32,000 bases of DNA from Bacillota bacterium. Its GTDB lineage: Bacteria; Bacillota; Bacilli; Bacillales; Bacillaceae_I. Positions 12,803 to 30,661 of the stretch are shown here, one piece after another; position 1 is the first letter of the stretch; the number at the start of each line of letters is the position of its first letter. Position numbers and translations under genes: made by a program. The stretch covers positions 289,947-321,946 of the forward strand of contig JBNJJQ010000002.1 of NCBI GenBank assembly GCA_051750385.1, written 5' to 3'. Under the pieces are notes generated by a model. It ran no database searches. It saw only the letters and a program-made list of their open reading frames with translations, and had not been told where the DNA came from.

Positions 12803-12835
12803 AAAAAAAAGAACAAGACTTTTGTCGTCTTGTCC
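12803..12835 (-). terminator. Rho-independent terminator ending the pil operon
   Basis: On the minus strand GGACAAGAC-GACAAAA-GTCTTGTTC is followed by eight T residues. Confidence 0.75.
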
Positions 12836-12897
12836 TAATTGTTTTCCGACACAATCCCCTATGCATTAGGGCTTTCGACTGTTTCCTCGGAAATAAT

Positions 12898-13620
12898 TTA
12901 TTCATTGTCGAGAAATGGATTGGTCTTATTACTCGGTTCCGGTGCAGAGATCGGAGGCAGATCCTCCATCAAGTCCGCTAGCTCCGGATGATAAAACGCT
13001 GATAACTGAACCGAATATGTGAGTGACGTCAATTCCTGTGCAATGGAAGTCAGTTCGGGAAGTCCAGTGAAAGCAACCGATTCGATTTGAGTGATTCGCG
13101 TCAACCCTTCCAATTCCTCAAGGAAGGTAGTTAGATCTTCATAGTTCTCGGACTCGACGGATAAATTGACGGTTACCTTCTTTAACCCTTCAGGCAAGTA
13201 GGCTTGTTCCGTTTGTTGTTCTTCTGTGCTGTCCGTGGTTGTAGTGCTGTTCACTTCCACGTACTCATCCAGGGTAGTAGTCGCTGAAAAATCCGCATCA
13301 CCAAAAGTCATATTCATGATTCTTGAATTGGAGACCACTTCCGCTTTCTCGAGTTCGAGAATCAGCTGCTCGACATAGGAGGTGACAGGTATCTTCCGCT
13401 GGAGTTCCATTGTATTTCCCAACCCTGTTCCAGCTGATTCCTGCTGCTGATCCAGGACTTGAATCAATTGCTCCTCAATTTCAATTTCCTGCTTTTTCTG
13501 CTCCACCATTGTCTGTTTAGGTGCGTAGCTTAAATAGTAGAAAAGGATGATTCCCATTACGAGCAATGCTACAACAGAGGCAAAGATGATGTAGTGCTTT
13601 CTCTGCAGTTCAATGATCAT
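12898..13620 (-). CDS. pilO: Type IV pilus assembly protein PilO-like
   Basis: It has a single N-terminal TM segment, a coiled-coil segment and a C-terminal alpha/beta region. It is translationally coupled to pilN by a 4-nt overlap. The assignment rests on position and architecture. Confidence 0.6.
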   Translation of the reverse strand: MIIELQRKHYIIFASVVALLVMGIILFYYLSYAPKQTMVEQKKQEIEIEEQLIQVLDQQQESAGTGLGNTMELQRKIPVTSYVEQLILELEKAEVVSNSRIMNMTFGDADFSATTTLDEYVEVNSTTTTDSTEEQQTEQAYLPEGLKKVTVNLSVESENYEDLTTFLEELEGLTRITQIESVAFTGLPELTSIAQELTSLTYSVQLSAFYHPELADLMEDLPPISAPEPSNKTNPFLDNE

Positions 13621-14291
13621 AGATCCTCGCCCCCATCCTCTGATTCCGTATCCGTCTCGGTTTCTGTATCTTCTTCATCTGATTCGATTTCTTCAACTTC
13701 AGTTTCCGGAGTTTCCTCTTCCTCAGCCTTTATAGCTGCCTTGTCAAATTCCAAGCTGTACTGCGCGATATAACGAGGCAATACATCAGCATCCTCTTCC
13801 TCACCGACAGTGGTGGTGGTAACGCTAGAGAGATTGACATTCTCGAAATAGCTGTTCCCGTTCAGATGATACAGGTAATAGGCTGCGTCTTTGGATTGAT
13901 CGAATTGCACCGTTACATTCAATGCTCCGCTCTCTGCATAGGAGAAGCTTTGAACAAACCCACGGCTCGGAAGCATCCTTACAAGCTCCTGCATGACAGG
14001 AACCATTTCCACTGGATATTCCTCTGCCCATTGAACCGTATTCTCCAAGCGCTGAGCGGAGGAAGAGTTCTTAGGTGTTCGTATGGATTCTTCTTTTGTT
14101 GCACGCAATGCCTGGACATTTTCGAGGCCTCTTTCAGCCCTCAAGACATCCTGGCTGACAAGATGCTGAAAGATTACTAGAAGAATAACCACAAAAAGAA
14201 CAAAGAATCCGCAAATTCCATAAACAAGAGGAGTCGTAATGTTACGCGCCTGTTTTCTTGGCAATAGATTTATATCTACTAACGTTTTCAT
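13617..14291 (-). CDS. pilN: Type IV pilus assembly protein PilN, with an acidic C-terminal tail
   Basis: The N-terminus VDINLLPRKQ is the INLLP PilN signature. One TM segment follows. The gene lies directly after pilM. Confidence 0.8.
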   Translation of the reverse strand: MKTLVDINLLPRKQARNITTPLVYGICGFFVLFVVILLVIFQHLVSQDVLRAERGLENVQALRATKEESIRTPKNSSSAQRLENTVQWAEEYPVEMVPVMQELVRMLPSRGFVQSFSYAESGALNVTVQFDQSKDAAYYLYHLNGNSYFENVNLSSVTTTTVGEEEDADVLPRYIAQYSLEFDKAAIKAEEEETPETEVEEIESDEEDTETETDTESEDGGEDL

Positions 14292-14293
14292 TC

Positions 14294-15274
14294 CTACACC
14301 TCTTTTAACGCTAACCCGAGTGGAAAATAATACTTAGGGTCAACAACCTCTTGGTCTTGTGTATAAACATCCTGCTCATATGTATCAACCGGGACTGTAA
14401 TCCGTTCTCTCAGTTTTGCCAATACCAATGGGGAGTTAGGATGATCCCCATATAGGAGAACTCTCTTTACTTCATCGGTCCCTTGGTTCAAGGAATAACG
14501 GAAGAAGTTCATGATCCGTTCCACTTCTTTGATGAAGTCCTCCAAAAATACGTTAAACTGAATAATATCTCCGGCCCACTCCATTCTCGTATTTGTCTCT
14601 GACACTTCCCATGTCTTAATGTCGGCTGGGATGGCGATGGTTCTGACGAATACAGGAGCATGCTTCATGAAAATACTAAGCGTGATGCAGCTGATATCAA
14701 AATGAATGATTAATAGATGGTCATTCTCATTTCGTTGTCCGAACTCATAATAAAGTCGGTACAGACAAAGGGAAGAAACATCCGCCACAGTCGGCTTCAT
14801 TTTGTTTTCTTCAAAAATGGAAGACACCTGCGTGACCATTTCCTCCGGTGAAGCGAAAAGAACAAGGTCCGTTTTCTCGGAACGCTGAAGAACATGAACG
14901 TCAAAGACCGGATCTTCAAATGGAAGGTGAATGGTCGAACCAAGCTCCAGATACAGGTGTCCGATAATCTCGTCATCCATCACATTCGAAGGGATGCTAA
15001 GCTTTCTTGTTACCACAAACTGATCCGGAACGACAAATCTTACATGCTTCCGCTTCAATCCCCATTCTTCCACACATTCCTCGAAAATGAGACGAAAGAT
15101 ATTTTCATCGACAATCTTCCCATCACGCACGATGTTCGGCGGCAAAAATCGCTCCTTTGTGCGCTTGACCGTCAAAGGATTCAAACTCTTCAACTCTACC
15201 ATTCTAATAACATGGTCACGAAACGTAATATTTATAAAATTATTATGTTTTGGTTGTAAAAACGAAAATTCCAT
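14294..15274 (-). CDS. pilM: Type IV pilus assembly protein PilM (actin-like ATPase fold)
   Basis: This 326-aa cytoplasmic protein has a PilM-like pattern (RFLPPNIVRDGKIVDENIF..., VPDQFVVTRKLSIP). It is followed by pilN and pilO. Confidence 0.75.
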   Translation of the reverse strand: MEFSFLQPKHNNFINITFRDHVIRMVELKSLNPLTVKRTKERFLPPNIVRDGKIVDENIFRLIFEECVEEWGLKRKHVRFVVPDQFVVTRKLSIPSNVMDDEIIGHLYLELGSTIHLPFEDPVFDVHVLQRSEKTDLVLFASPEEMVTQVSSIFEENKMKPTVADVSSLCLYRLYYEFGQRNENDHLLIIHFDISCITLSIFMKHAPVFVRTIAIPADIKTWEVSETNTRMEWAGDIIQFNVFLEDFIKEVERIMNFFRYSLNQGTDEVKRVLLYGDHPNSPLVLAKLRERITVPVDTYEQDVYTQDQEVVDPKYYFPLGLALKEV

Positions 15275-15298
15275 TCAGTAGAACTCCTTTTTTATTTA

Positions 15299-16078
15299 CT
15301 AGAAGAGTAGAGAAAAGTACAGGTTCAAGATTTTCTCGCCTACAAAATAACTGATGAGCGCCGCCACTGCAATCGATGGTCCAAACGGAAACGGTACACC
15401 CTTTTTCACTTTGCCGAACAGCATTCCAGTAAGGGCTACAATCATCCCTACCAATGATGCGAGAAAGAATGTAAGGATCACCATCTTCCATCCCAATACA
15501 AATCCCAGGACAGCAAACAGCTTGATATCCCCTCCACCCATGCCTCCTTTGGAAAGCATGGCAACAAGTGCTGGAATCGCAAAACCTACCGCCAGTCCAA
15601 TCAGATGATTCGGTAGGGTCTGATACGGAATGAAAATTCTTTCAAAAATGAATAAAAGAAAGAAGAATAACAGTATCTTATTTGGAATGAGCATATAGTG
15701 AATATCAGTAATGACGATGATAATCAGCATCGAAATGAGGGTCCAAGCAATGACCAGCTCATATGTCCACCCCATCAATAATGGTGCAAGGACAAACAGC
15801 ACAGCCGTCAATAGCTCGAATAATGGATAAATAGGAGACACGGTATGTTTACAGTACCGACATCTCCCCTTGGAAAATACATATGAAAGGACGGGAATCA
15901 AATCAATCCCCGTCAATGTCTGTTTACAGCTTGTACAATGTGACCTCGGTGCCACGATTGACATGCCCTTTGGAATTCGAAGGCCGACTACGTTGTAGAA
16001 GGAGCCTAGGAGGAGGGCTGTGATGAAAATCAAGATATTATAAGGAGTATAAATATCAATCTGAAGAAGATGTATCAT
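15299..16078 (-). CDS. pilD: Prepilin peptidase / N-methyltransferase (A24 family; PilD/ComC)
   Basis: LGSFYNVVGLRIP, the CTSC...CRYC zinc cluster, ITDIHYMLIPN and GGGDIKLF (the two catalytic Asp) are present. It is closely collinear with B. subtilis ComC. The start is uncertain: ATG 16078 is preferred and TTG 16096 is the maximal ORF. Either start overlaps the 3' end of pilA. Confidence 0.9.
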   Translation of the reverse strand: MIHLLQIDIYTPYNILIFITALLLGSFYNVVGLRIPKGMSIVAPRSHCTSCKQTLTGIDLIPVLSYVFSKGRCRYCKHTVSPIYPLFELLTAVLFVLAPLLMGWTYELVIAWTLISMLIIIVITDIHYMLIPNKILLFFFLLFIFERIFIPYQTLPNHLIGLAVGFAIPALVAMLSKGGMGGGDIKLFAVLGFVLGWKMVILTFFLASLVGMIVALTGMLFGKVKKGVPFPFGPSIAVAALISYFVGEKILNLYFSLLF

Positions 16079-16562
16079 GTACCTGGCCACGTGCAAGTGA
16101 ATTTACACTAACTGCCTTCCCGTCTTCATCTTGTACTCCTCGTGAATTATTAACTAATTTAACTTCTGTAACTTCCCCATTAACAACCTTTACGTAAGAA
16201 ACATTGTTATCTGCTAATTCAGTTTTCTCAACAAGTTCTGAAGAACCCCTTTTATAACTAGTATCTGAACCATCAGGATCCTTTACTATATCTAAGAACT
16301 TACCTTTTTCTAGATAATCTAATGTTAGAAAGAAAGTACCGTCTTTTTGAAGATTCGCATCTCCAGCGACAGCTAACTTTGCAGAACTAACCATCTGCTG
16401 AGCATTCGCAACATGCGCATCCTTTTTACTATTATCTATCAAACCACCGATACTAGGCACGGCAATAGCAGCAATAATCCCCAAAATAACAACAACAGCA
16501 AGTAACTCGATCAATGTTAACCCTTTTTCGTTGCGTAAAATGTTTCTACATTTTTGTAACAC
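16056..16562 (-). CDS. pilA: Type IV major pilin (prepilin-type N-terminal cleavage/methylation domain)
   Basis: The leader MLQKCRNILRNEKG is followed by LTLIELLAVVVILGIIAAIAVP, with Gly-1 and Glu+5. It is the only short pilin gene adjacent to pilC and pilD. The GTG start follows GGGAGG. Confidence 0.85.
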   Translation of the reverse strand: MLQKCRNILRNEKGLTLIELLAVVVILGIIAAIAVPSIGGLIDNSKKDAHVANAQQMVSSAKLAVAGDANLQKDGTFFLTLDYLEKGKFLDIVKDPDGSDTSYKRGSSELVEKTELADNNVSYVKVVNGEVTEVKLVNNSRGVQDEDGKAVSVNSLARGQVHDTSSSD

Positions 16563-16660
16563 TTTTAATTTTCCTCCCTTTTTGGAAATATGTAGTAATT
16601 CTTTATCTACTATAATTCTATTATACTAGACAACAAATTTCAATAAGAATCTACAGCATT

Positions 16661-17869
16661 TTATGACTGAATGTGGTTAAAAATATCGAACATTGGAACT
16701 AGTATTGACGTGACTATAGTCCCGACAATAATTGCCAGTAAGACAATCATTAATGGCTCTATTAAACTTTTTAATCGGTCCGTTGCGTTGTCGACTTCTT
16801 TTTCATAGAACTCGGCGATTTTATCCAGCATGACATCGAGTGAACCTGTACTTTCTCCAATGGAAATCATTTGTGTCACAAGTGGCGGGAATGCCCAGTG
16901 TGCTTTCATGGGAGTTGTTAGGGACTCCCCTTTTTCTAAAGCTCCCCTTGCATCTTCCAATACTTTCGCGATCACTTCATTTTCGGCAATTTTTTCAACG
17001 ATAGAGATTGCCTGTAAAATTGGAACGGAGCTGGATAGCAGCGAGCTGAGTGTTCTAGTCAGCCTTGCAATAGAAGCCTTTTGCAAAAGCTTTCCGAATA
17101 TAGGTAGTCGCAAAAGGAAATAGTCAAGGTAGTATTTGAACTGTTTTTGCTTTCTTGCAAGTGTTAGTCCAAGAACTACTCCACCAAAAAATAGTATGAC
17201 CTGCCACCAATATACCTGCATCCATTCACTTGAACCTAATACAAACCGCGTAATCAACGGTAGTTCTGCTCCAAAGTCGGAGAACATCGCAACAAAGGTC
17301 GGGACTACTCCGACTAGCAAGAAAATGATAACAGCAATTGCAATCACCCCTAATACAAGAGGGTAAGTCAATGCTGAAATAATTTTCTGCTTCGTTTCGT
17401 GCTGCTTTTCGAATTGTGTGGCCAAACGGTCCAGCGTATCGTCAATCGCTCCACTTGCTTCACCGGCTTTTATCATATTGACAAACATAGCAGAGAAAAT
17501 TTTAGGGTATTTGGCAGCAGCATATGAAAGGGAGTTACCTTGCCTTAACTCCTCTTCTACATCCAGAAGCGTGCGTTTGAGAATCTTGCTTTCTGTCTGA
17601 TGGGCGAGTACGTTCGTTGCTTCTACTACAGGAACGCCTGCCCTGATCAAGGTAGAGAATTGACGTAAAAATACTACAAAGTCACGCAGCTTTACAGGAT
17701 TTCCTATTGTAATTTCCTTGGTGAAAATAGATTCAGGCACCTCATCCATTTGCAGAACTCTTATTCCTTCATCCCTTAGCTTAATAAAGGCTTCTCTTCT
17801 AGAGGCACTGATGACCGCACCTTCTCTTTTTCCACTTTTATCTCTTCCAACATACTTAAATTTAGGCAT
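16661..17869 (-). CDS. pilC: Type IV pilus platform protein PilC (GspF family)
   Basis: This 402-aa protein has a duplicated T2SS-F domain architecture with three TM segments. The N-terminus MPKFKYVGRDKSGK is typical of PilC. Confidence 0.92.
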   Translation of the reverse strand: MPKFKYVGRDKSGKREGAVISASRREAFIKLRDEGIRVLQMDEVPESIFTKEITIGNPVKLRDFVVFLRQFSTLIRAGVPVVEATNVLAHQTESKILKRTLLDVEEELRQGNSLSYAAAKYPKIFSAMFVNMIKAGEASGAIDDTLDRLATQFEKQHETKQKIISALTYPLVLGVIAIAVIIFLLVGVVPTFVAMFSDFGAELPLITRFVLGSSEWMQVYWWQVILFFGGVVLGLTLARKQKQFKYYLDYFLLRLPIFGKLLQKASIARLTRTLSSLLSSSVPILQAISIVEKIAENEVIAKVLEDARGALEKGESLTTPMKAHWAFPPLVTQMISIGESTGSLDVMLDKIAEFYEKEVDNATDRLKSLIEPLMIVLLAIIVGTIVTSILVPMFDIFNHIQS

Positions 17870-18911
17870 TATAGCTGACCGACTCCTGTAAAAAACTTTC
17901 CGCTGATATTTTAGATATTTGACCAGATTGGATCATTTCTTTTATATTCATTTCCAACGTATGCATACCTTGAGCTCGACTGGTCTGCATGACGTTTTGG
18001 ATTTGATGAATCTTTTCATTTCTTATCAGATTCCCAACAGCTGAGTTATTGATAAGGATTTCTGTTGCCACTTTCCTGGATTGTTTGTCTATAGATGGAA
18101 ACAATCGTTGAGAAATTATAGCCACAAGAACAGAAGCCAATTGAATCCGGATCTGTGGCTGCTGTGGACCAGGGAAGACGTCGATTATACGGTCAATTGT
18201 TGAAGGTGCACTTGTTGTGTGCAAAGTTCCAAGGACAAGATGTCCCGTTTCTGCAGCAGTAATAGCTGTCTGGATTGTCTCTAAATCTCTCATTTCCCCA
18301 ACCAAAATCACATCCGGATCCTGACGTAAGGAAGCACGTAACCCGTTTGCAAAAGATTTTGTATCAAAGCCGACCTCTCGTTGATCAATCATACATAAAT
18401 TATGCTTATGTAAGTACTCAATCGGGTCTTCTAGTGTAATAATATGTTTTTTGCTTGTACGATTCATAAAATCGATCATGGAAGCTAGTGTCGTAGACTT
18501 ACCGCTCCCTGTTGGTCCTGTCACCAGAATAAGTCCTTGCGGCTTTTCCACCAATTTTTGAAGTATTGTTGGAAGATCCAATACTTCTAAACTTGGCACA
18601 CTAGTAGGTATAATTCGAATGGCAAGCGCAATAGAGGATCTTTGTTTGTACGCATTGACCCTGAATCTAGAAATCCCGGGCAAACTGTAGGAAAAGTCCA
18701 ACTCTCCTTTATCCTCAAACGTCGACCACATAAAATCCGGAATCATTTCCTTCGCAATTTCAAGCGTATCCTCCGGCATTAGGATGGAGTCGCCGTACCG
18801 CTTTAAATCTCCATTAATCCGAAAAACAGGTGCAACCCCAACTGACAGATGAATATCCGATGCTTTATATTCATAAGCTGCATGCAGCCAATCTTGTAGT
18901 TTATTTATCAT
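17862..18911 (-). CDS. pilT: Type IV pilus retraction ATPase PilT
   Basis: ASDIHL, Walker A GPTGSGKST, the Asp box, Walker B ILVGEMRD and the His box GHLVLGTLHT are present. At about 350 aa with no N-terminal extension, it fits PilT. Confidence 0.92.
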   Translation of the reverse strand: MINKLQDWLHAAYEYKASDIHLSVGVAPVFRINGDLKRYGDSILMPEDTLEIAKEMIPDFMWSTFEDKGELDFSYSLPGISRFRVNAYKQRSSIALAIRIIPTSVPSLEVLDLPTILQKLVEKPQGLILVTGPTGSGKSTTLASMIDFMNRTSKKHIITLEDPIEYLHKHNLCMIDQREVGFDTKSFANGLRASLRQDPDVILVGEMRDLETIQTAITAAETGHLVLGTLHTTSAPSTIDRIIDVFPGPQQPQIRIQLASVLVAIISQRLFPSIDKQSRKVATEILINNSAVGNLIRNEKIHQIQNVMQTSRAQGMHTLEMNIKEMIQSGQISKISAESFLQESVSYNA

Positions 18912-18919
18912 AGTTTCAC

Positions 18920-20587
18920 CTATTCTTGTAAGGCAACACGCAGAATTTCTTCTGTCGTGGTTAGTCCTTGTATTACTTTCATCAGTCCGTCATCGATTAG
19001 AAATACGGTATCATGTTCCGCTGCTAGTTCACGAATTTTTGAAATTGGTTGATTGTTCATAACCACTTTTCTCATTTCATCGTTGATTACCAGTAATTCA
19101 TGGATGGCAATCCGGCCTTTGTATCCAGTCATATTACATGTGCCGCATCCCTTGCCACGCGATATTTTCTCAATGGTTAAGCCTCTTTTCGCAAAAATTT
19201 CTCTCTCACGGACAGTCGGCTCATCCTGCTTCATGCAATCCCGGCACACTTTCCGTACTAATCGTTGAGCAATTACACCATTTACAGAAGAAGCCACAAG
19301 AAAAGGTTCCACTTTCATATCTATTAGTCTTGTAACAGTACTGATCGAATCATTTGTATGAAGTGTACTTAATACGAGATGTCCAGTAAGTGACGCTCGT
19401 ATCGCTACTTCTGCCGTTTCTTTGTCCCGGATCTCCCCTACCATGATGATGTTTGGATCTTGGCGGAGAATAGCTCTGAGCCCCTTGGCAAATGACATAC
19501 CGACGTTTGTGTTCACCTGAATCTGATTGATGCCTTCAAGCTGGTATTCCACAGGGTCTTCCACTGTGATGATATTCACTTCTTCACTATTCAAATGGTT
19601 CAATGCTGCATATAAAGTGGATGATTTCCCTGAACCGGTTGGTCCTGTAATTAGAATAATGCCTGTTGGCTTGGTGATAAGCTCAATAAATCTCCCATAG
19701 TTCTTCGGGTTAAATCCCAATTGAGATAAATCATTTAATGTACTGCTCATATCCAATATACGCATTACCACTTTTTCCCCGTACACCGTCGGAAGAGTGG
19801 ACACACGGACATCCACTGGGTGATAATCAATATTTGTCTTGATTCGGCCGTCCTGAGGTACACGATGCTCTGTGATATCCATATTCCCAAGGATTTTAAT
19901 TCTTGCTATCAGGACATTTTGAGTATGCTTCGGTAAAGTCCTTTCGGTTTTCAAAACTCCATCAACACGATATCTTACGACAACTTTTGTTTCCTGAGGA
20001 TCGATATGTACGTCACTCGCACGTTGTTGCACAGCATTTTGGAGGATCTGATTGACTAAACGGACAACCGGCGAGTCATCTTCCGTAATCCTTTCATCCT
20101 CGATTTTTACCGAGGATACAGGCTCCAGAATATCCATAAACTCATCTATGGCATCAGTTACCTCATAGTATTTGTTGATGGAACGCAGAATATCATCCTT
20201 TGTTGCAATGACAGGTTCTATTTCAAAGCCTGTTGAAAGGCGTAAATCGTCTATCGAAAAATAGTCCATTGGATCTGCCATCGCCACATACAATTTATCC
20301 TGTTCTTTTTTTATCGGAATCAATAAATTCCGCTTTGCAAAATCTTTTGAAATGACATGCATTAGTTTTTCATCAAACGGGTACCGGTACAAACTTACAT
20401 GAGGTATTCCTAACTGGAATTCCAGCACTTCAATCAATTGTTGTTCAGTAATGTACCCTTTTTGAAGTAATGCATCCCCAAGCTTTTGACCCTTTATCTT
20501 TTCTTCCAATGTCAAGTGAAGCTGTTCCGATGTTATAATACCTGCATCAACTAATAGGTCACCTAATCTTTTCCGTGTATCGTTCAT
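18920..20587 (-). CDS. pilB: Type IV pilus assembly ATPase PilB (GspE family) with N-terminal T2SSE_N/MshEN-like domain
   Basis: Walker A GPTGSGKSS, Walker B IMVGEIRD and GHLVLSTLHT are present, as is the tetra-Cys motif CRDC...CGTC. The N-terminus contains RLGDLLVDAGIITSEQL...KLGDALLQKGYITEQQL. ATG 20587 is preferred because AAAGGA lies 8 nt upstream. ATG 20596 abuts the RBS. Confidence 0.93.
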   Translation of the reverse strand: MNDTRKRLGDLLVDAGIITSEQLHLTLEEKIKGQKLGDALLQKGYITEQQLIEVLEFQLGIPHVSLYRYPFDEKLMHVISKDFAKRNLLIPIKKEQDKLYVAMADPMDYFSIDDLRLSTGFEIEPVIATKDDILRSINKYYEVTDAIDEFMDILEPVSSVKIEDERITEDDSPVVRLVNQILQNAVQQRASDVHIDPQETKVVVRYRVDGVLKTERTLPKHTQNVLIARIKILGNMDITEHRVPQDGRIKTNIDYHPVDVRVSTLPTVYGEKVVMRILDMSSTLNDLSQLGFNPKNYGRFIELITKPTGIILITGPTGSGKSSTLYAALNHLNSEEVNIITVEDPVEYQLEGINQIQVNTNVGMSFAKGLRAILRQDPNIIMVGEIRDKETAEVAIRASLTGHLVLSTLHTNDSISTVTRLIDMKVEPFLVASSVNGVIAQRLVRKVCRDCMKQDEPTVREREIFAKRGLTIEKISRGKGCGTCNMTGYKGRIAIHELLVINDEMRKVVMNNQPISKIRELAAEHDTVFLIDDGLMKVIQGLTTTEEILRVALQE

Positions 20588-20620
20588 TGTGGTCATCCTT
20601 TACGTTGCAAATTAGTTGGT

Positions 20621-22021
20621 CTATTTCCCTCCAGGATATGAAGGGTTGTTTCCAGCATTATTGCCAGTACCATTACTGTTACCTGTACCGGAATTTGATG
20701 TGTTGCCAGTCGTACCGGTGTTTTCTGTGTTAGATCCACCGTTGTTATTTGATCCAGTATTGTTGCTATTGCCGTTGTTTGTACCATTGTTCGATCCGCT
20801 ATTGGTACCTCCAGTATTATTGCTACCGGAATTAGAATCTGGCGCAGTTACTATTGGATTATTTGGACTCTCAGGCATGGTTGGAACTTCTGGCTTTATT
20901 AAGCTATGAACCTCGACCCTATGTACTGGAGCATAAAAATCCTGTGCAATAAGAGTTGTATCCAATATTTCTCCATCACTTCCTAAAGCATTCCTCACAA
21001 TAACAGCATATTCCCCTGACTTGCCCGCTTCCTTCACTTGTTTTTGATTCCTTTGCACAATTGGTGAATATTGAACAATCGTCTTTGGCTCAAAGGTTTC
21101 TATTTTCTCTTCGATAATTTCGTACGAAAAGGCAAGTGGTTGGCCTGTAATGCCTCCTGAAATACTATTTATAGCTATTGATACATCTATCGTCAGGACA
21201 TGATTGTTGGGATTAAATAATTGAAGATCCATTATTCCTTTGCTATACGCTGCTTCATAACCTGCTTCCGCATATTCTGGTAATTCTTTGGATATATGCC
21301 GCTCAACTATTTCCACATTCGTTGGAAGAGCTAACTGATATAATAGAGTTGCCAATATCCCACCGCTCTCTTGGCTCAAAGTTATGCCCTCTTGAATCAA
21401 CCAGTCTTCCAACGAGAAGGTAGAGCCGGGCTCAAGATTGATAACTGATATTTCTCCCATTTCTACTAAAATATCTGCGTCCACCATCAGATTTTCTTCA
21501 TGCAAAACTTCATCTGTACTAGAAACTTCAAAAAAATAATCCAATATGGGAAAATTCGAGTCTTCTTCTATTAATTTCGAAGCAATGGAAACTATGTCAA
21601 TTTTTAGTTTTTCCATGTAAACTTCTGTATTTATTTCTGAGTTGCCTGTCAACTGTTCAATGGTTTTCAAAAATACAGAATCAGGAAGAGTGACAAATAA
21701 AGTATTTCCATTTCCATCAATTGCTTCTTCAACAGATTTTTCAATATGAAACTCAAATTCTTTTTTATCTATGGAGGCGATTTCTCCGGACCATTCCAAA
21801 TAAATCATGCCCTTTTCTCTCCATGTTTCAACAGCCAACTCCAACTCATTTATTGCTTCAGCCCTGGACTTATTCTCTACCAGCTCCGTACCGATTAATG
21901 TTTCGCTTTGGAAATTTTTCGTTAATATCTTATCAGCCACAAAGGTTGGACCAAATTGTCCAGTTAGAAATACAAGTAGAGTTCCTATTAACAGTACACC
22001 GAAAAGCTTTAAACCTTGCAT
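20621..22021 (-). CDS. Membrane-anchored VanW-like + G5-like domain protein with Asn/Gly/Ser/Thr-rich C-terminal tail (no Cys)
   Basis: It has an N-terminal TM segment. The segment PGSTFSL...SGGILATLLYQLALPTNVEIVERHISK...DLQLFNPNNHVLTI parallels the VanW family pattern (PGxTFSF...GGGxCQxSSTLY...EIxERxxHS...DxxFxN), recalled from memory. The following segment (KQVKEAGKSGEYAVIVRN...HRVEV) looks G5-like. ATG 22021 is preceded by GGGGGA. Only 24 nt separate its stop from pilB. Confidence 0.65.
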   Translation of the reverse strand: MQGLKLFGVLLIGTLLVFLTGQFGPTFVADKILTKNFQSETLIGTELVENKSRAEAINELELAVETWREKGMIYLEWSGEIASIDKKEFEFHIEKSVEEAIDGNGNTLFVTLPDSVFLKTIEQLTGNSEINTEVYMEKLKIDIVSIASKLIEEDSNFPILDYFFEVSSTDEVLHEENLMVDADILVEMGEISVINLEPGSTFSLEDWLIQEGITLSQESGGILATLLYQLALPTNVEIVERHISKELPEYAEAGYEAAYSKGIMDLQLFNPNNHVLTIDVSIAINSISGGITGQPLAFSYEIIEEKIETFEPKTIVQYSPIVQRNQKQVKEAGKSGEYAVIVRNALGSDGEILDTTLIAQDFYAPVHRVEVHSLIKPEVPTMPESPNNPIVTAPDSNSGSNNTGGTNSGSNNGTNNGNSNNTGSNNNGGSNTENTGTTGNTSNSGTGNSNGTGNNAGNNPSYPGGK

Positions 22022-22060
22022 TTTATATCCCCCAATCACGGCTTCTTTCTAATCTATCGC

Positions 22061-22438
22061 CTACTTTAACGTCAAATCATCAGATAGTGCTTCTAATTTC
22101 TTCTCATTTTTCTCAGGATTGGAAGATTTGAGAAAATAAGAATCATTTTCTTCAATTCCGGTTTCAACATTTTGTTTTCTTTTCAATACATTTTTATTGG
22201 TATGGTACATAAAGGGACGCTTCTGAAGAAATATCGTAGCAAGTAAAAGCAGAAGTAGGATGAGTAATAGTGAATGCCAAGGAGTAAATAGCTGCTGAAT
22301 GGAAGAACCTATTATGCTTGCAAATAGAATTATAGTTGCTACCGTTATTTTACCTTTTAAACTAAATCCAAATGAAAATTTAAAAAGAATTGCTAAAAAA
22401 ATAAAAAAAACAAGTAAAACCATTAAGTATGTAAGCAA
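22061..22438 (-). CDS. Small hypothetical membrane protein (about 3 TM) at the head of the pilB-side operon
   Basis: This is a 125-aa ORF with hydrophobic segments and a polar, charged C-terminal half. Translation signals are weak: a TTG start after GTGGTG, or ATG 22423 with no SD. It fills the only gap between the divergent control region and the VanW-like gene. Confidence 0.4.
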   Translation of the reverse strand: MLTYLMVLLVFFIFLAILFKFSFGFSLKGKITVATIILFASIIGSSIQQLFTPWHSLLLILLLLLLATIFLQKRPFMYHTNKNVLKRKQNVETGIEENDSYFLKSSNPEKNEKKLEALSDDLTLK

Positions 22439-22477
22439 ATTCGCACCACTTTTCTATATTTTTTACAAAATTTGTAG

Positions 22478-22506
22478 AAGTAAGTAAGATATTGTTATTG
22501 TATAAT
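22478..22506 (+). promoter_or_regulatory. Candidate promoter of the minor-pilin operon
   Basis: A perfect TATAAT lies at 22501..22506, 34 nt upstream of ATG 22540. At 17-nt spacing only a poor -35 (AAGTAA) is found. Confidence 0.35.
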
Positions 22507-22525
22507 AAATATAGGTAATTTGAAA
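22497..22525 (-). promoter_or_regulatory. Candidate divergent promoter of the pilB-side operon
   Basis: The minus strand reads TTTCAA (22525..22520), a 17-nt spacer, then TACAAT (22502..22497). This -10 element physically overlaps the plus-strand TATAAT. Confidence 0.3.
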
Positions 22526-22539
22526 TAGGAGAATCATAG

Positions 22540-23247
22540 ATGAAAAAACTTTTTGAAGAAGAAAGAGGCTTTACATTATTAGAAGTATTAATATCGATGA
22601 CCATCCTTTCTGTCGTAGTAATTGGAATGATGAGCTTCTTTGAGAACAGTTACAGTTACGTCAAAGAAAATGAATCAAAAACAGTCGCGACCCAGGTAGC
22701 CAGAAATGTAATGAACTATGTTGAAAAACAGGATTTCTCTAAAATGGAAGGTTATTTAATATACGAGAGAATTCCCCTTGAAAATAAATACATACTCGAA
22801 TTGGATTTCACACATTGTATACAACCAGTCACCATATCAACAAAAAGTCTCCCTTCCGTTACTGAACGAACTAATATTGACAATGTATTATTGTTTGATG
22901 ATCAAGCACGTTGCCAATCCATCTTAAAGCCAACCATTAATAATGTAACCTATGATGGAGACAAAAAAGTACAAATTTACATTATGAAATATAATAATAC
23001 TGAAGAAATACTTAGATTGAAAGTTCTTATAGAACAGAATAATCATGTCATTAATGAATTACCAGATGGGATAAAAGAATTTATTTTAAACTATGATGAA
23101 GATCTTGATAAGTTTAAACCGAGTGAATTTTCAGAAAAAGAATTCATGGATGAGCATCTGCTCCGAGTATTCACCGTTTTGAACTGGAATGAAGACCGGG
23201 AAGAAGTAATGATTCAAGGAGTCCTATCTCATGAAACTATTCGATAG
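22540..23247 (+). CDS. Minor pilin (prepilin-type N-terminal cleavage/methylation domain)
   Basis: MKKLFEEERG followed by FTLLEVLISMTILSVVVIG is a canonical class III signal (Gly-1, Phe+1, Glu+5). The RBS AGGAG is present. Confidence 0.8.
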   Translation: MKKLFEEERGFTLLEVLISMTILSVVVIGMMSFFENSYSYVKENESKTVATQVARNVMNYVEKQDFSKMEGYLIYERIPLENKYILELDFTHCIQPVTISTKSLPSVTERTNIDNVLLFDDQARCQSILKPTINNVTYDGDKKVQIYIMKYNNTEEILRLKVLIEQNNHVINELPDGIKEFILNYDEDLDKFKPSEFSEKEFMDEHLLRVFTVLNWNEDREEVMIQGVLSHETIR

Positions 23248-23890
23248 ATTAAAAGATGAACAAGGTGTTACTCTTTATGAATTGCTGGCAGTGCTAGTTA
23301 TTAGCGGAGTTGTGTTGAGCTCCATTTACGGAGTCTTTATAACCGGGGTAAACCTATATAAAAAAATTGGAATTGAGAGTCAACTTAAAGAAGAGGCAGA
23401 TATTATTGTTGCCACAGTTTTGAACGAGTTTTACGCCTATTCTCCTGATGATGTGGAATATAATGCAAATAGTAATGAGTTGATATTAGCCAAGTTCAGA
23501 CAGGTCGAGATTAGCGATAAAGACTTTGTAACATCTACCTTTGACAAAGATGAGATGAACCGTAAGGCTATTATTCGCATCAACGACTCTCTTTCATCGG
23601 TCGGTAAAGATGTTTTCCTTGATACGAAAGAAATACCAGAAGACAGTGAACCAGATTTGATTGAAAAAACATTAAAGATTAATAATGAAAAATACCTTTT
23701 GTTACCTGTGCAAGATAGCACGGGCAGCGATTTGCCTATCATCGATTTTACCTGTACCTCCCATTCAAAATCACAGTGCAATGGGGGCATTGTTTCTTTT
23801 CATTTTCAAATCGCACATGAAAACTATAGCGATAAAGCCAATAGATTGTATGTGGAACCGATAGAATTTTATAGTCAATTCGGCTTTTAA
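23231..23890 (+). CDS. Minor pilin (prepilin-type N-terminal domain, Val+1)
   Basis: MKLFDRLKDEQG is followed by VTLYELLAVLVISGVVL, with Gly-1 and Glu+5. The RBS AAGGAG is present. It overlaps the upstream gene by 17 nt. Confidence 0.75.
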   Translation: MKLFDRLKDEQGVTLYELLAVLVISGVVLSSIYGVFITGVNLYKKIGIESQLKEEADIIVATVLNEFYAYSPDDVEYNANSNELILAKFRQVEISDKDFVTSTFDKDEMNRKAIIRINDSLSSVGKDVFLDTKEIPEDSEPDLIEKTLKINNEKYLLLPVQDSTGSDLPIIDFTCTSHSKSQCNGGIVSFHFQIAHENYSDKANRLYVEPIEFYSQFGF

Positions 23891-23908
23891 GTAGAATGAG
23901 GTGTACCA

Positions 23909-25636
23909 ATGAATGAAAAAGGATCCAGTTTATTAGTAGTACTTATTACAGTCTCGATTTTTATGATACTTGGAGTTTCCATATTAACCGTGGCACTAGG
24001 TGGAGCTTTGAGAACACAAATCCAGTTAGATCGCTATGAAAACATTTATGAAGGAAAAGAACAACTGGATTTTGTTATTTCTAGATTTAAAGAAGAAGTC
24101 ATAAATATCCCCCTCAATACAGAAGATCTTCCTCATGAATATCAAAATCGGTTGGACCAAGCTTTAAATAGTTTAGCCGCTTACGAAAACTTCAATGCCG
24201 AGGATATGACAGAAACCTATGTCGCTGATAAAAGTGAATTATTCACAAGAGTATACGAGTTTTCAATTGTGGCTGGTGAAGGGAATGCGAAAAAAACAAT
24301 AAAAAAACAAGTCATATTATCACCTGCTCCAAGTTTCCTGGATTATGCCCTCGGCTCCTTTGGTGAAGGTGATGACGAAGGATTATTACTGGTAAACGGG
24401 TCACCAAATGTGGATGGGGATGTCATTGCCAACAATCTGCATATTAAAAATGAAGCTGAGTTTATTGATCAGGATGGAGAGAATACTGCCTCTACACCAT
24501 TCCCCGCAATTAGCGGAAACATTAATATTCAAAAGATGTTGAGCCTTTGGGATACCAAGACCTTACAACCTATAAAATTTACAGCTGAACATTTGCAAAC
24601 CGATCAGATTCTTTCCAGCTTCTTTTATAACTTCATCAAGCCTGATATCTATTCAAGGTCTGAAGATTTTGTAGATGTTAACTTTGATCAAACATATCTT
24701 GATAAACTAAATGAACTTCTAGTTTTGCCGAGCAGCTCTGTTACTTCTGATGAACTGTTGGATGACAATTCATTAAATGAAATCCGAAACAAGATAGCTC
24801 AACAATTACCTGAAAGTAATTTACCTCCTGATTTGATTGAAAACGATATTTTATTGGATGCAGGGACAATTAATAGTATCCCCGGGCGAATCGTCTACCA
24901 TGATTCAGTTCAGGTATACAGTGCTATCGAGCAAATTAACATCAATAAGCCAATGGTGATAAATGGAGATTTAACTCTCACTTCCGGACTAAACAACCCA
25001 ATTTCCATTACCCAGCCACTGACCGTAATTGGGGACCTTACTATTAATATTACAGACACTCCAATTGATATTAGTGGGACTGTCATTGTATTCGGCGACC
25101 TGATAATAAATGGTAACGAAGAGGCGGTTGGAAGCGGTGCAGAGAACGATACGATAAAATTTGATTCGACCATCTATACATGGGGAAGCAGCTATATATC
25201 TAATACAAATATTGAAGGTATTGACCAAGAAAAACAACTGGTTCTCTTTTCAAAAGGCGAATTGACTATTACCAGAATAAATGAATTCCGTAGATTTTCC
25301 ATGGAACAAGATAACCAAAATATCTATGATCTAGGTAATGAAACCATTCCTTTAAAAGCATTCTTTTATACAGAAAATAATGCAACTTTATACGGGGTAG
25401 GTTCCATGTTTCACATTAATGGAGGATTATTTGCCAAGAAAACGTTAGAGATAAATGCCATACGAGGCAATATCAATCGAAGTAATACACTAACACCTCT
25501 TTCAGATCAATTTCAACTTAATAAGAAAACTCGTTTTCAAATTGTACATGATCCGAATGTTCTTGTCAGTCAGGTGTCAAGGTTGCCTGTGGCTGATCGT
25601 CTAAGAGTTATCGTAAGTGAAACTTCCATTAAATAA
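23909..25636 (+). CDS. Large PilX/GspK/PilK-like minor pilin lacking Glu+5, with a repetitive beta-rich C-terminal region
   Basis: MNEKG is followed by SSLLVVLITVSIFMILGVSILTVALGG, a hydrophobic PilX_N-like N-terminus with Val at +5. It is the third gene of the minor-pilin operon. The RBS GAGGTG is present. GD(L/V)xI-type repeats recur (NGDLTLT, VIGDLTINIT, VFGDLIING). Confidence 0.6.
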   Translation: MNEKGSSLLVVLITVSIFMILGVSILTVALGGALRTQIQLDRYENIYEGKEQLDFVISRFKEEVINIPLNTEDLPHEYQNRLDQALNSLAAYENFNAEDMTETYVADKSELFTRVYEFSIVAGEGNAKKTIKKQVILSPAPSFLDYALGSFGEGDDEGLLLVNGSPNVDGDVIANNLHIKNEAEFIDQDGENTASTPFPAISGNINIQKMLSLWDTKTLQPIKFTAEHLQTDQILSSFFYNFIKPDIYSRSEDFVDVNFDQTYLDKLNELLVLPSSSVTSDELLDDNSLNEIRNKIAQQLPESNLPPDLIENDILLDAGTINSIPGRIVYHDSVQVYSAIEQININKPMVINGDLTLTSGLNNPISITQPLTVIGDLTINITDTPIDISGTVIVFGDLIINGNEEAVGSGAENDTIKFDSTIYTWGSSYISNTNIEGIDQEKQLVLFSKGELTITRINEFRRFSMEQDNQNIYDLGNETIPLKAFFYTENNATLYGVGSMFHINGGLFAKKTLEINAIRGNINRSNTLTPLSDQFQLNKKTRFQIVHDPNVLVSQVSRLPVADRLRVIVSETSIK

Positions 25637-25640
25637 TAGG

Positions 25641-25680
25641 AAAGAGGACAACCCTTTTGTATACTTGGGTTGTCCTCTCT
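25641..25680. terminator. Bidirectional terminator between the convergent minor-pilin operon and the vWA gene
   Basis: A 12-bp stem AGAGGACAACCC (25643..25654) pairs with GGGTTGTCCTCT (25667..25678). Both sides are flanked by T-rich sequence on the relevant strand. Confidence 0.7.
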
Positions 25681-25683
25681 TTA

Positions 25684-28635
25684 TTACCACCTGTAATTAT
25701 TTCCTGGGTTACTTATATCGTCTTCACCATTTCCAATAATGACCATTGTGGTTGCACGTATATTTCTGTCTTCTTTTGATGTTGCAGTAACAAATACAAC
25801 TCCTGGGGAAATACCTCTGCCTTTACCGTTTTGATCGATATAAAATTTGTCAGGCAAATCAACGGACCACTCAACCTCTATCTTATTTTTTAGCTGAGGA
25901 GGGTCAAATCTTAATTGGCCTTGTAGACTATTCAACGGTTGATTTACTTTTACGTAATAATAAGGTTTATGGAACGACATTGTATAGTTTGGAAAATCCA
26001 AAATTTTCATTTGGGCTTGCTCACTTATTTGGGACCCATTGATTGAAGCTGTTATTGATACTTCTCCTGTTTTTTTTGCCGTGACGACTCCATTGTTGTT
26101 AACAGAAGCGATACTGTTATCACTGGAATTCCAATTTATTAATACATCAGATAGTGTATCTGTCGTCTCTAAAATCGCTTCAATGGTCTGAGTATCTCCA
26201 ATATACATTTCATTTGAATAATTTAATGATAGATCAGATATTCCATTGAAGTTTATAATCAATTCATCTTCAAAAGAATTTCGAATGAACCCACCTGAAG
26301 CTTTCACTTGGAATTTGGATGTTCCAAGATCATTCAATTCAGCAATAATATCCTCAGGGTTTATCGTTCTCCAGTTAGAATAATTCGTTCTATTTGGCGT
26401 TTTTGTTCGTACCTCATAGACAGCTGTTCCTCCAGTCACGAATTGGTTAAAAAATATTTTCACAGCTTGATTTACGATATACTGCCCATTTTCTACTGGA
26501 AAAACAACCTCATCACTACTACTCAATACTACAGCAACAGTAGGAATTAAGGGTAAAAATACATTACTAATTCCATGGAATTTGATTATTATACTACTTT
26601 TCTCTTCATCGAACTCCATGAATTCCACAGGAATTAATATCGGGTTTCCCCCAGCATCTTTTAAGGTGGTAGAAGCTAACAGTTGTCCAGAATCTCGGAC
26701 ATATTTACTGATATTTCCGGACTGATTACCCCTATACTCTACAGTGGGCTGGACATCAAGATCAATTAATTTAATGACCATTTCTACCAATTCATTAAAC
26801 CGTGAACTAACATTTGCTTTTAATTGTGCATTTGGTCTAGACGAATCCTTAAATTCAATTGATGGGTCAGGTAAAGCTTGTGCGTTTAGACTATGAATAC
26901 CCCGTAATTCAAGTGAGGTTTGCAGTTGTTCTTCAGAAAATATTAAGTTCCCATTTTTTGTTTCATAAGTTAATTGTTTTATAGGAATAAGAATCTCTTT
27001 CGAACCATCTGGGAAGATTGTTTCAGTCATACCAGATCCTAGTTTAGAACTTAACCCCGCTGGAATCCTCTGTCTGAGTTGAACATCACTTAAATTCCCT
27101 TTGCTTCCTGAAGGCAACTTTCCATAAGGTTTAATAGTATAGATAATGTTGAAAGTGTCTTTATTTTCAGTCATAATATTAGATTTTTGCAATTTAATCG
27201 TATTATCTTTAATTGGTGCCGTAGTTGAGAACTGCATGTCCAGTTCGAAAGATGGTGCCACTTGGTTTTGTACAGAAACCTTTATCTCTTCTTTATAGAC
27301 CATAATCTGGTCAATACCTTCTATATCTTTATATTTTAATTTCACTTCAAAAAAATAGTCTCCATTAGAGTTAAACTCTATTGGAAGATTCGGCACAGAT
27401 ACCACACCAGGACCCACACCTACTTCATACTTAACATTTCCATTAGCTGGAGTAACAATAGCATACTTGATACCATTTCGAGTTTCCACTTTAATTCCAT
27501 CAGAGCCTTCTACCCTTACACCACTTGGAATTTTAACTTCAAGGGATACTTCGGAAAGAGATGGTGTTTCTATTTCTCTCACTAATGATTCAAATATTTC
27601 ATTCAGATTACTGCCGGATGCTATCCTTGCCATTGATATATTATTACTCGTTTTACTTGCTAATTTATCAAGATATGTTTTGCTGGCCTCACCGAATCCT
27701 ACTGGATAAAGAATCGTATCTCCATTCCTTATTAAACTGGAAGTATCTTCTGCGTGATTTTCTACATATGCTTTAGCATGATTTGAAAAAACAATGGTGT
27801 TATTGTTATGTTTAAAACTTCTTTTCGATATTCCTGAACTTCCATTAGAATATACAATAAACTCGGTAGTGATATTCTCTTTGTGGTTTTTTAATAAATC
27901 ATATGAATAATCTTCATACTTATTGTCACAAAAAATCCACCAGCAATCTTGAATTTCTTTTTGATATTTTCCTCTTGGTATGTCCTTAGTTTTCAGGACT
28001 GTTGGTTCACCATCTGTTAAAAAAATTATAACTTGGTCTCTATTTTCATCTGAATTATTGCTTAAAATTTCTTTCGCCTTAATCAATGAGTCGCTATAGT
28101 TTGTTCCAGTTTCTAAACTTCCTTCAGGTGCCACAATTTCTTTAACAACTTCAGCAATTTCATTTACGTTTTTCGTCAAAGCATTCCCATCAAAGTTACT
28201 TACTACAGCATTACTGTTAAACTCAACTAACCCGAAACGATCCTTGTTGACTCTATTGGCATTTGCCTCACTGAAAATCGTAGCAGCAGTTTGCATTGCC
28301 TCCTTAGCACGGTCTAACCTGGAAGTCTTTTTATCTATTTCAAAATTCATGGATGCTGATTTATCAAAAACAAAAACCACATCCAAAGGCTTCCTTGGAT
28401 TTTCGGTAAGCATTCCGTTCCGCATCACTTCGAAATTCAGGGATGTTCTAGCTATGTTCTGACTTCCTTCTTTTTGCAATATCAGTTCTTTTCTTGCCGG
28501 TTCCACTTTATTTATTGATAATGAGAGTTGGTCTTGGTTAGTTGTGTTATTGGTGAGGGCTATTGTTGGGGCTAATCCAGAAAGCATAATATGTATGATA
28601 AGTATTCCTATCACAAAACTCCTTACGTTCTTCAT
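25684..28635 (-). CDS. Large secreted vWA (MIDAS) domain protein with two C-terminal Big_2 Ig-like domains
   Basis: A Sec-type signal peptide is present (MKNVRSFVIGILIIHIMLSGLAPTIALT). The vWA domain has a complete MIDAS (VVFVFDKSASM = DxSxS; GTNYS; FLTDGEPT). There is a long beta-rich middle region. Two Big_2-like segments lie near the C-terminus (e.g. INWNSSDNSIASVNNNGVVTAKKTGEVSITA). No LPXTG motif and no prepilin motif are present. Confidence 0.85.
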   Translation of the reverse strand: MKNVRSFVIGILIIHIMLSGLAPTIALTNNTTNQDQLSLSINKVEPARKELILQKEGSQNIARTSLNFEVMRNGMLTENPRKPLDVVFVFDKSASMNFEIDKKTSRLDRAKEAMQTAATIFSEANANRVNKDRFGLVEFNSNAVVSNFDGNALTKNVNEIAEVVKEIVAPEGSLETGTNYSDSLIKAKEILSNNSDENRDQVIIFLTDGEPTVLKTKDIPRGKYQKEIQDCWWIFCDNKYEDYSYDLLKNHKENITTEFIVYSNGSSGISKRSFKHNNNTIVFSNHAKAYVENHAEDTSSLIRNGDTILYPVGFGEASKTYLDKLASKTSNNISMARIASGSNLNEIFESLVREIETPSLSEVSLEVKIPSGVRVEGSDGIKVETRNGIKYAIVTPANGNVKYEVGVGPGVVSVPNLPIEFNSNGDYFFEVKLKYKDIEGIDQIMVYKEEIKVSVQNQVAPSFELDMQFSTTAPIKDNTIKLQKSNIMTENKDTFNIIYTIKPYGKLPSGSKGNLSDVQLRQRIPAGLSSKLGSGMTETIFPDGSKEILIPIKQLTYETKNGNLIFSEEQLQTSLELRGIHSLNAQALPDPSIEFKDSSRPNAQLKANVSSRFNELVEMVIKLIDLDVQPTVEYRGNQSGNISKYVRDSGQLLASTTLKDAGGNPILIPVEFMEFDEEKSSIIIKFHGISNVFLPLIPTVAVVLSSSDEVVFPVENGQYIVNQAVKIFFNQFVTGGTAVYEVRTKTPNRTNYSNWRTINPEDIIAELNDLGTSKFQVKASGGFIRNSFEDELIINFNGISDLSLNYSNEMYIGDTQTIEAILETTDTLSDVLINWNSSDNSIASVNNNGVVTAKKTGEVSITASINGSQISEQAQMKILDFPNYTMSFHKPYYYVKVNQPLNSLQGQLRFDPPQLKNKIEVEWSVDLPDKFYIDQNGKGRGISPGVVFVTATSKEDRNIRATTMVIIGNGEDDISNPGNNYRW

Positions 28636-28676
28636 CTTAACCTACCCTTCTAGTTATATTTTCCTATATATCTACA

Positions 28677-28712
28677 ATTATATCAGAACATTTTTCAAAA
28701 AATACTATTTTA
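28677..28712 (-). promoter_or_regulatory. Candidate promoter of the vWA gene (extended -10)
   Basis: The minus strand reads TGA-TATAAT (28685..28677), about 40 nt upstream of ATG 28635, in an AT-rich intergenic region that follows a terminator. No convincing -35 element is present. Confidence 0.3.
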
Positions 28713-28766
28713 TATGTAAATATTGTTTCTTTCTACAATATTTTCAACTTTGATTTCTTCAAAGCT

Positions 28767-28810: not shown

Positions 28811-28813
28811 TTT

Positions 28814-30550: not shown

Positions 30551-30603
30551 ACTAACCCCTCCCTTCCTACCTAGTTTTCTCAATAAAATATTGCAATAAC
30601 GTA

Positions 30604-30632: not shown

Positions 30633-30661
30633 AACAAAAATAGGATAATTCTCCCTTTATT

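Follow-up and report, generated by a model that had tools for sequence, protein, structure and literature searches.

How a type IV pilus (T4P) crosses the thick, secretin-less wall of a Gram-positive bacterium, and how it is braced there, is an open question. It is raised in concrete form by a gene that lies directly upstream of pilB, the gene for the pilus assembly ATPase, in a genome of the Bacillaceae (GenBank assembly GCA_051750385.1). The window, that is, the whole stretch of DNA analysed here, comprises 32,000 nucleotides (nt) of contig JBNJJQ010000002.1, and the gene (termed here the VanW-like gene) occupies positions 20621-22021 of its reverse strand; according to the list of open reading frames (ORFs) and the translation, it encodes a protein of 466 amino acids (aa) with zero Cys residues. 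An earlier note, made from the sequence of this DNA alone, had described a cysteine-free VanW-like/G5 protein at these positions, which translation and domain calls confirm. In their source records the members of the family are annotated as 'hypothetical protein' or 'G5 domain-containing protein'.

Bollinger et al. (2024, PMC11348318) identified VanW domains as L,D-transpeptidases with a conserved Cys-His-Asp triad, the Cys of which is essential for cross-linking; the earlier note's description of them as Cys-dependent enzymes of this kind is correct. The window protein is read here as a T4P-dedicated, extracytoplasmic wall-interaction protein that derives from a VanW-type L,D-transpeptidase and that is proposed to act as a stem-peptide-recognising pseudoenzyme--a reading that we hold to be evenly balanced between right and wrong.

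A pilB-linked VanW family and its catalytic site

Scanning of species-representative genomes turned up 187 relatives of the protein, and 80 of the loci were taken for a neighbourhood survey. In every one of these 80, which span more than 15 genera (Sutcliffiella, Anoxybacillus, Cytobacillus, Mesobacillus, Neobacillus, Peribacillus, Metabacillus, Rossellomorea, Heyndrickxia, Aeribacillus, Robertmurraya and others), pilB lies directly downstream of the VanW-like homologue, at gaps of -10 to +65 nt; directly 5' of pilB-pilT-pilC is also the position of all three of the distant homologues (30-40% identity). Co-occurrence was counted in a sample of 201 genomes spread evenly over the order Bacillales and, because these genomes are related, the counts are descriptive and no statistical test is attached to them. 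The VanW-like gene is present, in one copy, in 124 of the 201 genomes (~62%) and in 69 of 99 genera, and PilT is present in 140: both are found in 120 genomes, the VanW-like gene only in 4, PilT only in 20 and neither in 57, and the gene thus occurs in 86% of the PilT-positive genomes. Of the 120 genomes with both, 119 have the two genes on one contig and one strand, 1.7-4.3 kb apart, with a median of 1.9 kb (i.e., one pilB gene); the sole exception sits at a contig end. Across the Bacillales, then, the VanW-like gene is near-obligately linked to pilB and pilT, and the tie to the pilus genes that the earlier note had drawn from a single locus recurs throughout the order.

A sample of 301 genomes from across the phylum added only one further full-length member, from another order of the class; this outlier, too, lies directly 5' of pilB and has Asn and Gln at the positions of the canonical Cys and His. 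The remaining matches in that sample are ordinary VanW-G5 proteins with intact motifs. In a tree of VanW domains the pilB-linked proteins form one clade (support 98/94), on a long branch from canonical VanW, and an exhaustive profile search places ~500 clusters (50% identity) in the family at E<=1e-30. Within it, the folded part of the protein is under purifying selection: between close homologue pairs, the ratio of nonsynonymous to synonymous substitution rates (dN/dS) of this part is 0.05-0.28, and that of the tail, on which constraint is far weaker, is up to ~1.

The genome to which the window belongs also has two canonical VanW genes (L004 and L005), which score 174 and 149 bits in the genome scan (171 and 147 bits as translated), are unlinked to pil genes, and keep the motifs GGGICQ/GGGLCQ and ERYSHS/ERYRHS. 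When the pilB-linked family is aligned with canonical VanW by hhalign (probability 96.8%, E 3e-10), no gap interrupts the register between the Cys motif and D-x-x-x-x-N. In this register Gly221, the second G of 'SGGILAT', falls at the canonical Cys of GGGxCQ, much as the earlier note had read it, and Ser244 falls at the canonical His of ER-x-x-H-S; His242 of the pilB-linked family (21296-21298) is paired with the canonical Tyr. Pairwise MAFFT alignment, by contrast, equates His242 with the canonical His by means of two compensating gaps; this register was dropped in favour of the profile-profile one, because the spacing from ER to Gly is identical in both families. The two candidate positions for the triad Asp are both acidic, namely E256 (the D of G-x-D-A-T) and D265 (the D of D-x-x-x-x-N). 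Moreover, ~16 residues that stand ahead of GGGxCQ in canonical VanW, including a conserved GY block, are deleted in the pilB-linked family.

A column census was taken over two sets of sequences: 81 that derive from the loci and 146 representatives at 50% identity. The Cys-equivalent column reads S57 T10 N9 G3 C1 K1 in the former and S95 N31 T8 D4 G3, with no Cys, in the latter; the His-equivalent column reads S69 G10 H1 E1 and S109 G36 T1, again with no His among the representatives. In the column of His242 the counts are H60 N18 Q2 S1 in the 81 sequences, and 78 of the 146 representatives have H. Judged from these alignments, two of the three triad residues are gone family-wide, with one exception among the 81. 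Since both Cys and His are replaced, L,D-transpeptidation by way of a thioacyl intermediate is impossible for the window protein, and the case for loss of the nucleophile is stronger than the earlier note had made it, because the His has also given way (to Ser244) and ~16 residues are deleted. That note had predicted the protein to be catalytically dead, which stands for thioacyl transpeptidation but is limited to it here, because Cys-to-Ala mutants of the Clostridioides difficile enzymes Ldt4 and Ldt5 keep carboxypeptidase activity. The complete absence of Cys, to which it had also drawn attention, is true of the 466-aa protein but is not a trait of the family: about half of the members carry 1-3 Cys elsewhere, mostly in the transmembrane (TM) helix, and, the one exception aside, none has a Cys at the catalytic position.

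Other residues of the domain are strongly kept. S203, N235, E240, G254, N270 and N272 are invariant in the 81 sequences, R241, E256 and D265 are nearly so, and all of them are conserved in at least 93% of the 146 representatives. Most of these residues are common to canonical VanW, and those best kept in comparison with it--FS, ER, G-x-[DE]-A and D-x-x-x-x-N--surround the former substrate site.

The one exception is found in Aeribacillus pallidus NRS-2058 (L058:5965-7191), the sole member seen with Cys, His ('ERNRHQ') and Asp ('GYDVYV') at the canonical positions. Its gene still lies directly 5' of pilB, and the other members of the clade within which it falls have none of the three residues; because of this nesting, the possibility that it represents an ancestral, still-active intermediate was rejected. 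The triad looks like a secondary rebuild through three point changes, a hint that catalysis can be regained.

Domain architecture and the disordered tail

An AlphaFold2 (AF2) model of the protein, built on 15 homologues and confident over residues 40-375, predicts an N-terminal TM helix, an alpha/beta N-domain, the VanW domain, a beta-rich G5 domain and a disordered C-terminal tail, in that order (Table 1). The Pfam VanW profile (PF04294) matches the window protein at 33.7-34.4 bits (gathering cutoff 27; E 2.9e-8), over profile positions 45-126 of 130 only, and it matches 41 of 41 diverse family members; NCBIfam VanW matches to the window protein lie far below threshold. A hidden Markov model built from the canonical paralogues gave it 15 bits, but was too narrow to be informative, and hhalign was used instead. 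A search of the PDB with the family profile returned no VanW structure and one marginal G5 match, and Foldseek comparison of the AF2 model with the PDB returned no solved VanW-like fold, only G5 domains; the lack of a solved VanW-like fold agrees with the published description of VanW as a novel fold (PMC11348318). For G5 (PF07501), Pfam gives 17.2 bits in the window protein, below the cutoff of 23, and the profile is matched in 38 of the 41 diverse members, with a best E of 9.3e-9. The fold is nevertheless confirmed, because Foldseek matches solved G5 domains--4fzq, 8deo, 6oh1, 3tip and 3eo5, from HP0197-G5, SasG, Aap, IgA1 protease and RpfB--at probability 1.0 and E 1.8e-6 to 1e-3 (1.8e-6 to 1e-4 for 4fzq, 6oh1, 3tip and 8deo). 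Both the VanW homology and the G5-like segment that the earlier note had seen are therefore upheld.

The N-domain belongs to no recognised family. The earlier note had named PG_binding_4 (PF12229) as a profile to be checked alongside VanW and G5, and Pfam matched it in 0 of 41 diverse members at E<=1; between the N-domain and that of a weakly PG4-positive canonical paralogue, hhalign gave a probability of 0.6%. The best Foldseek matches of the N-domain are the Ldtfm entries 6fj1, 2hkl and 1zat, and these are non-significant (E 0.57-1.1, probability 0.2-0.35, TM-score 0.32-0.34), so that the modelled likeness to Ldtfm is suggestive at most. None of the three methods thus gave significant support for a PG_binding_4 domain here. 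At the N-terminus proper, the residues of the TM region are conserved in a sequence-specific manner (among the 146 representatives: K5 in 105, F7 in 105, L10 in 103, T14 in 104, F20 in 121, S21 in 118 and G24 in 125), and the modelled helix is probably a retained signal-anchor.

The tail had been described in the earlier note as a nearly pure N/G/S/T run of roughly 85 residues that is unusual for a protein of this layout. A disordered tail of 86 aa is indeed present, but its near-pure run is ~65 residues long; the 91 residues past position 376 include N26 G18 T13 S13 P8. Nor is a tail as such unusual, inasmuch as C. difficile Ldt4 and ordinary VanW-G5 proteins (e.g., L116) bear disordered tails too; only its composition is specific to a clade. 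Tails in the family are 30-126 residues long (median 73) and are usually acidic (D/E/S/P), and N/G/T-rich ones are confined to the Sutcliffiella-like clade. An origin of the tail by tandem repetition was considered and rejected, as no DNA tandem repeat was found in it.

Beyond the variable tail, 27 of the 80 loci and 31 of the 146 representatives (e.g., L032, L044 and L061) share a C-terminal motif, [LF][WFY]G-K-P-N-E-x-P-K, possibly a short element for docking at the tail's distal end. The last residue is K or R in 60 of the 80 loci and in 102 of the 146 representatives; the window protein ends in ...NPSYPGGK (20624-20650).

Among proteins described previously, C. difficile Ldt4 (CDR20291_1285) has the most directly comparable layout, which is given as TM-PG4-VanW-G5-IDR, where IDR denotes an intrinsically disordered region (Bollinger et al. 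2024, PMC11348318). The window protein resembles it in having a membrane anchor, a non-catalytic N-domain, a VanW domain, a G5 domain and a C-terminal IDR, and in the VanW motifs FS, ER, G-x-[DE]-A and D-x-x-x-x-N. The two differ in that Ldt4, with its Cys-His-Asp triad, forms 3-3 cross-links, whereas the window protein has Gly and Ser at Cys and His together with the ~16-residue deletion; in that the window N-domain, unlike that of Ldt4, is not a recognisable PG_binding_4 domain; and in that the gene is locked to pilB, whereas the Ldt4 gene stands alone. YoaR of Bacillus subtilis and the canonical paralogues L004 and L005 are, like the window protein, extracytoplasmic PF04294 proteins with an N-terminal hydrophobic segment, and they occur in the same order of bacteria; the paralogues, however, keep both GGGxCQ and ER..HS, have no pil linkage, and are given 147-171 bits by the VanW model as against 34 for the window protein. 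YoaR was among seven foreign VanW proteins assayed, three of which were active (PMC11348318).

The pil operon in the window

Coordinates of the gene, of its domains and key codons and of its neighbours are collected in Table 1. The ATG at 22021 is taken as the real start of the VanW-like gene because its ribosome-binding site (RBS) and the N-termini of the homologues, which share an equivalent start Met, agree.

Table 1. Features of the VanW-like gene and of the surrounding pil operon (window positions; pLDDT, predicted local distance difference test).
Feature	Position	Strand	Basis
pilT, pilC, major pilin, pilD, pilM, pilN, pilO-like, then terminator-like hairpin (12810-12836)	12810..18911	-	Pfam; terminator scan
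pilB (MshEN + T2SSE assembly ATPase), directly downstream of the VanW-like gene	18920..20596	-	Pfam T2SSE 455 bits, MshEN 73 bits
VanW-like/G5 gene	20621..22021	-	ORF list and translation; stop TAG 20621-20623
Disordered C-terminal tail, residues 381-466 (86 aa), N/G/S/T-rich, ends PGGK	20624..20881	-	pLDDT 25-41; composition
G5 domain (PF07501), residues ~299-375	20897..21127	-	Foldseek; Pfam sub-threshold
VanW-fold domain, residues ~197-298 (Pfam match 209-288)	21128..21433	-	Pfam, hhalign, pLDDT 90-97
Ser244 codon, canonical His position (ER-x-x-H-S)	21290..21292	-	Ungapped hhalign register and column census
Gly221 codon, canonical Cys position (GGGxCQ)	21359..21361	-	Alignments and column census
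N-terminal ectodomain, residues 36-196 (~160 aa), alpha/beta, no recognised family	21434..21916	-	Stand-alone AF2 model, pLDDT 90.7
N-terminal TM helix, residues 2-21	21959..22018	-	AF2 helix and conserved residues
Shine-Dalgarno GGGGGA	22028..22033	-	6 nt 5' of ATG at 22021; read directly from sequence
Upstream 125-aa membrane ORF, first gene of the operon here	22061..22438	-	ORF list; tblastn homologues upstream in related loci

The stop codon of the VanW-like gene lies 24 nt from the first pilB ATG (20596), and the spacing given in the earlier note holds for that start. At this ATG, the one listed for pilB, an RBS-like AAAGGA abuts the start codon with no spacer; a second ATG, at 20587 (MNDTRK...), has an RBS 8 nt upstream, and alignments of homologues begin there. 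Because of this spacing and these alignments, the true start of pilB is probably 20587. A terminator scan found no terminator-like site between the two genes (a gap of 24-33 nt).

The earlier note had also placed the VanW-like gene first in its operon; it is instead second here, where the 125-aa membrane ORF precedes it, and third in most genera. The 125-aa ORF is homologous, in shortened form, to the N-terminal membrane portion of a 500-590-aa protein that has no Pfam domain (L002:5669-7977; L003:112-2777). In most genera a ~500-aa membrane protein of this type heads the operon; next come a ~250-aa protein that has two PRC-barrel domains (52 bits) and the VanW-like gene, in that order. The Sutcliffiella-like clade has no PRC-barrel gene.

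Within 12803-31966 the pil cluster lies between folC and a 381-aa ORF, beyond which are maf-radC-mreBCD. Upstream of the operon there are divergent minor-pilin genes (22540-25636) and a gene for a 983-aa VWA/Big_2 protein (25684-28635). A GAF-GGDEF diguanylate cyclase gene (28814-30613) flanks the cluster and, because PilB also bears an MshEN domain, its presence suggests control of the cluster by cyclic di-GMP. The G+C content is 0.30-0.38 at 21001-29000, which covers the VanW-like, minor-pilin and VWA genes, versus 0.42-0.47 in most other 1-kb windows. The VanW-like protein, which would face the wall, changes far faster than the cytoplasmic motor: relative to the closest named relative, Sutcliffiella sp. 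NPDC057660 (L007), PilB is 93% and the VanW-like protein 64% identical, and relative to other Sutcliffiella the figures are ~84% and ~40%.

A possible role in the cell wall

According to the mechanism proposed here, the N-terminal helix would hold the protein in the membrane, and the N-domain, the VanW domain, the elongated G5 domain and the tail would project outward in that order. The VanW fold would keep its stem-peptide groove without the chemistry, and so could still recognise stem peptides of peptidoglycan, while the G5 rod, with the disordered tail beyond it, would extend through the thick wall. The protein might thereby tether the PilB/PilC/PilMNO platform to the wall or, alternatively, might mark or hold open the site at which the fibre crosses it. 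VanW domains do act on stem peptides, and G5 domains have been modelled into peptidoglycan (PMC11348318). The same source relates that C-terminal IDRs of penicillin-binding proteins have been proposed to target gaps in the sacculus, and because of that proposal the tail is a plausible pore-seeking element. In its most specific form the model makes the protein the T4P wall module of the Bacillales, in which a pseudo-L,D-transpeptidase grips stem peptides while G5 rod and tail thread the ~30-nm wall, anchor the motor against retraction and define a conduit for the fibre, as a monoderm counterpart of secretin-associated wall-binding modules; this version is advanced tentatively and is, on balance, a little more apt to fail than to hold. 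Tethering to peptidoglycan is a need of a retractile pilus, one that in diderms is met by such secretin-associated modules.

Gram-negative T4P and type II secretion systems have wall-binding accessories, such as the AMIN domains of PilQ, the LysM domains of TsaP and FimV, and GspA/B. The likeness to these would be one of functional analogy only--a wall-binding module that accompanies a type IV filament machine--as they have no relationship to the window protein in sequence or fold and work with an outer-membrane secretin, which monoderms do not have. Likewise the LytM factors EnvC and NlpD have wall-enzyme folds without catalysis and serve as scaffolds or regulators; here the parallel is one of concept, in that catalytic residues are gone while a groove is kept for what may be a structural or regulatory job, and both fold and pathway differ.

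Several observations weigh against the favoured reading of a pilus-dedicated, stem-peptide-recognising pseudoenzyme. The gene is not known from the Gram-positive pilus models that have been studied, namely Streptococcus sanguinis, Clostridium perfringens and C. difficile; and because the best-studied systems are thus without it, 20 of the 140 PilT-positive genomes lack it and the phylum sample has it only once outside the order, it is not a universal solution to passage through the wall. The co-occurrence counts come from genomes that are mutually related and hence are not independent. The carriers are non-model Bacillaceae, in which peptidoglycan binding, association with the pilus machine and a role in anchoring to or passage through the wall are functions that we infer, and the N-domain yielded no match to PG_binding_4. 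Even for PG4 or G5 domains, peptidoglycan binding is described in PMC11348318 as not experimentally demonstrated. Finally, transpeptidation is lost in Ldt4 C286A and Ldt5 C298A, whereas the tripeptide product, from which the terminal D-Ala has been removed, is still formed (PMC11348318), and some residual hydrolytic chemistry may accordingly persist in the window protein.

Such residual, Cys-independent hydrolysis is the basis of the main rival, according to which the protein is a peptidoglycan hydrolase (an L,D-carboxypeptidase or endopeptidase) that locally trims or un-cross-links stem peptides for passage of the pilus or insertion of its machine. Other envelope-spanning machines are known to have wall hydrolases of their own. 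Besides the tripeptide made by the Ldt4 and Ldt5 mutants, this explanation can call upon the polar and acidic residues of the pocket (S203, N235, E240, D265, N270 and N272 kept, R241 and E256 nearly invariant); upon Ser or Thr at the Cys position in 67 of the 81 locus-derived sequences and 103 of the 146 representatives; and upon His242, which shares a strand with the canonical His position and is two residues away from it, S/T, His242, Glu and Asp being found together in 51 of the 81. The window protein itself, however, has Gly at the nucleophile position, the stretch before the Cys motif that includes the GY block is deleted, and the residues at the candidate nucleophile position (S/N/T/D/G/Q/K) and base position (H/N/Y/Q/S) change freely from member to member, which is at odds with selection throughout the family for catalysis at these sites; a hydrolase is considered unlikely.

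Slightly less probable again is that the VanW/G5 scaffold has been repurposed for protein contacts, for instance as an outer collar or alignment factor that touches the fibre, minor pilins or PilN/PilO. Partners within the membrane are suggested by the way in which specific residues of the TM helix are conserved, the tight operon gaps suggest translational coupling with pilB, the N-domain belongs to no detectable wall-binding family, and most genera add two conserved accessory genes, those for the ~500-aa membrane protein and the PRC-barrel protein. Yet the residues best kept in common with canonical VanW ring the former substrate site, and a G5 domain and a disordered tail are features of wall-associated proteins. 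That the gene merely encodes a general wall housekeeping protein, set beside the pil operon by chance, is very improbable: the parent VanW/YoaR-like family does consist of general wall enzymes and the neighbourhood (folC ... maf-radC-mreBCD) is one of the cell envelope, but the gene is present in 4 of 61 PilT-negative versus 120 of 140 PilT-positive genomes, adjacency is kept in all but one of the latter 120 and across dozens of families, and the genome has its two canonical VanW genes elsewhere. Because of this phyletic pattern, mere synteny is nearly excluded.

The literature search found no paper linking VanW or G5 proteins to T4P operons (VanW with T4P gave unrelated co-mentions only, and the G5 domain with pilB gave nothing), and in the literature searched no VanW-fold pseudoenzyme is described. 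What is new, then, is a member of the VanW family with lost catalysis in a pilus-linked context. A 2025 review gives the roles of 'non-LDT' VanW homologues, LDT standing for L,D-transpeptidase, as unknown (PMC12729407); the triad-less subfamily described here, with its ~500 clusters, would answer in part what such homologues do. More generally, a single-copy, strongly conserved gene that descends from a peptidoglycan-acting enzyme and travels with the pilus motor genes offers a concrete candidate for a component through which T4P may interact with the thick wall of these bacteria.

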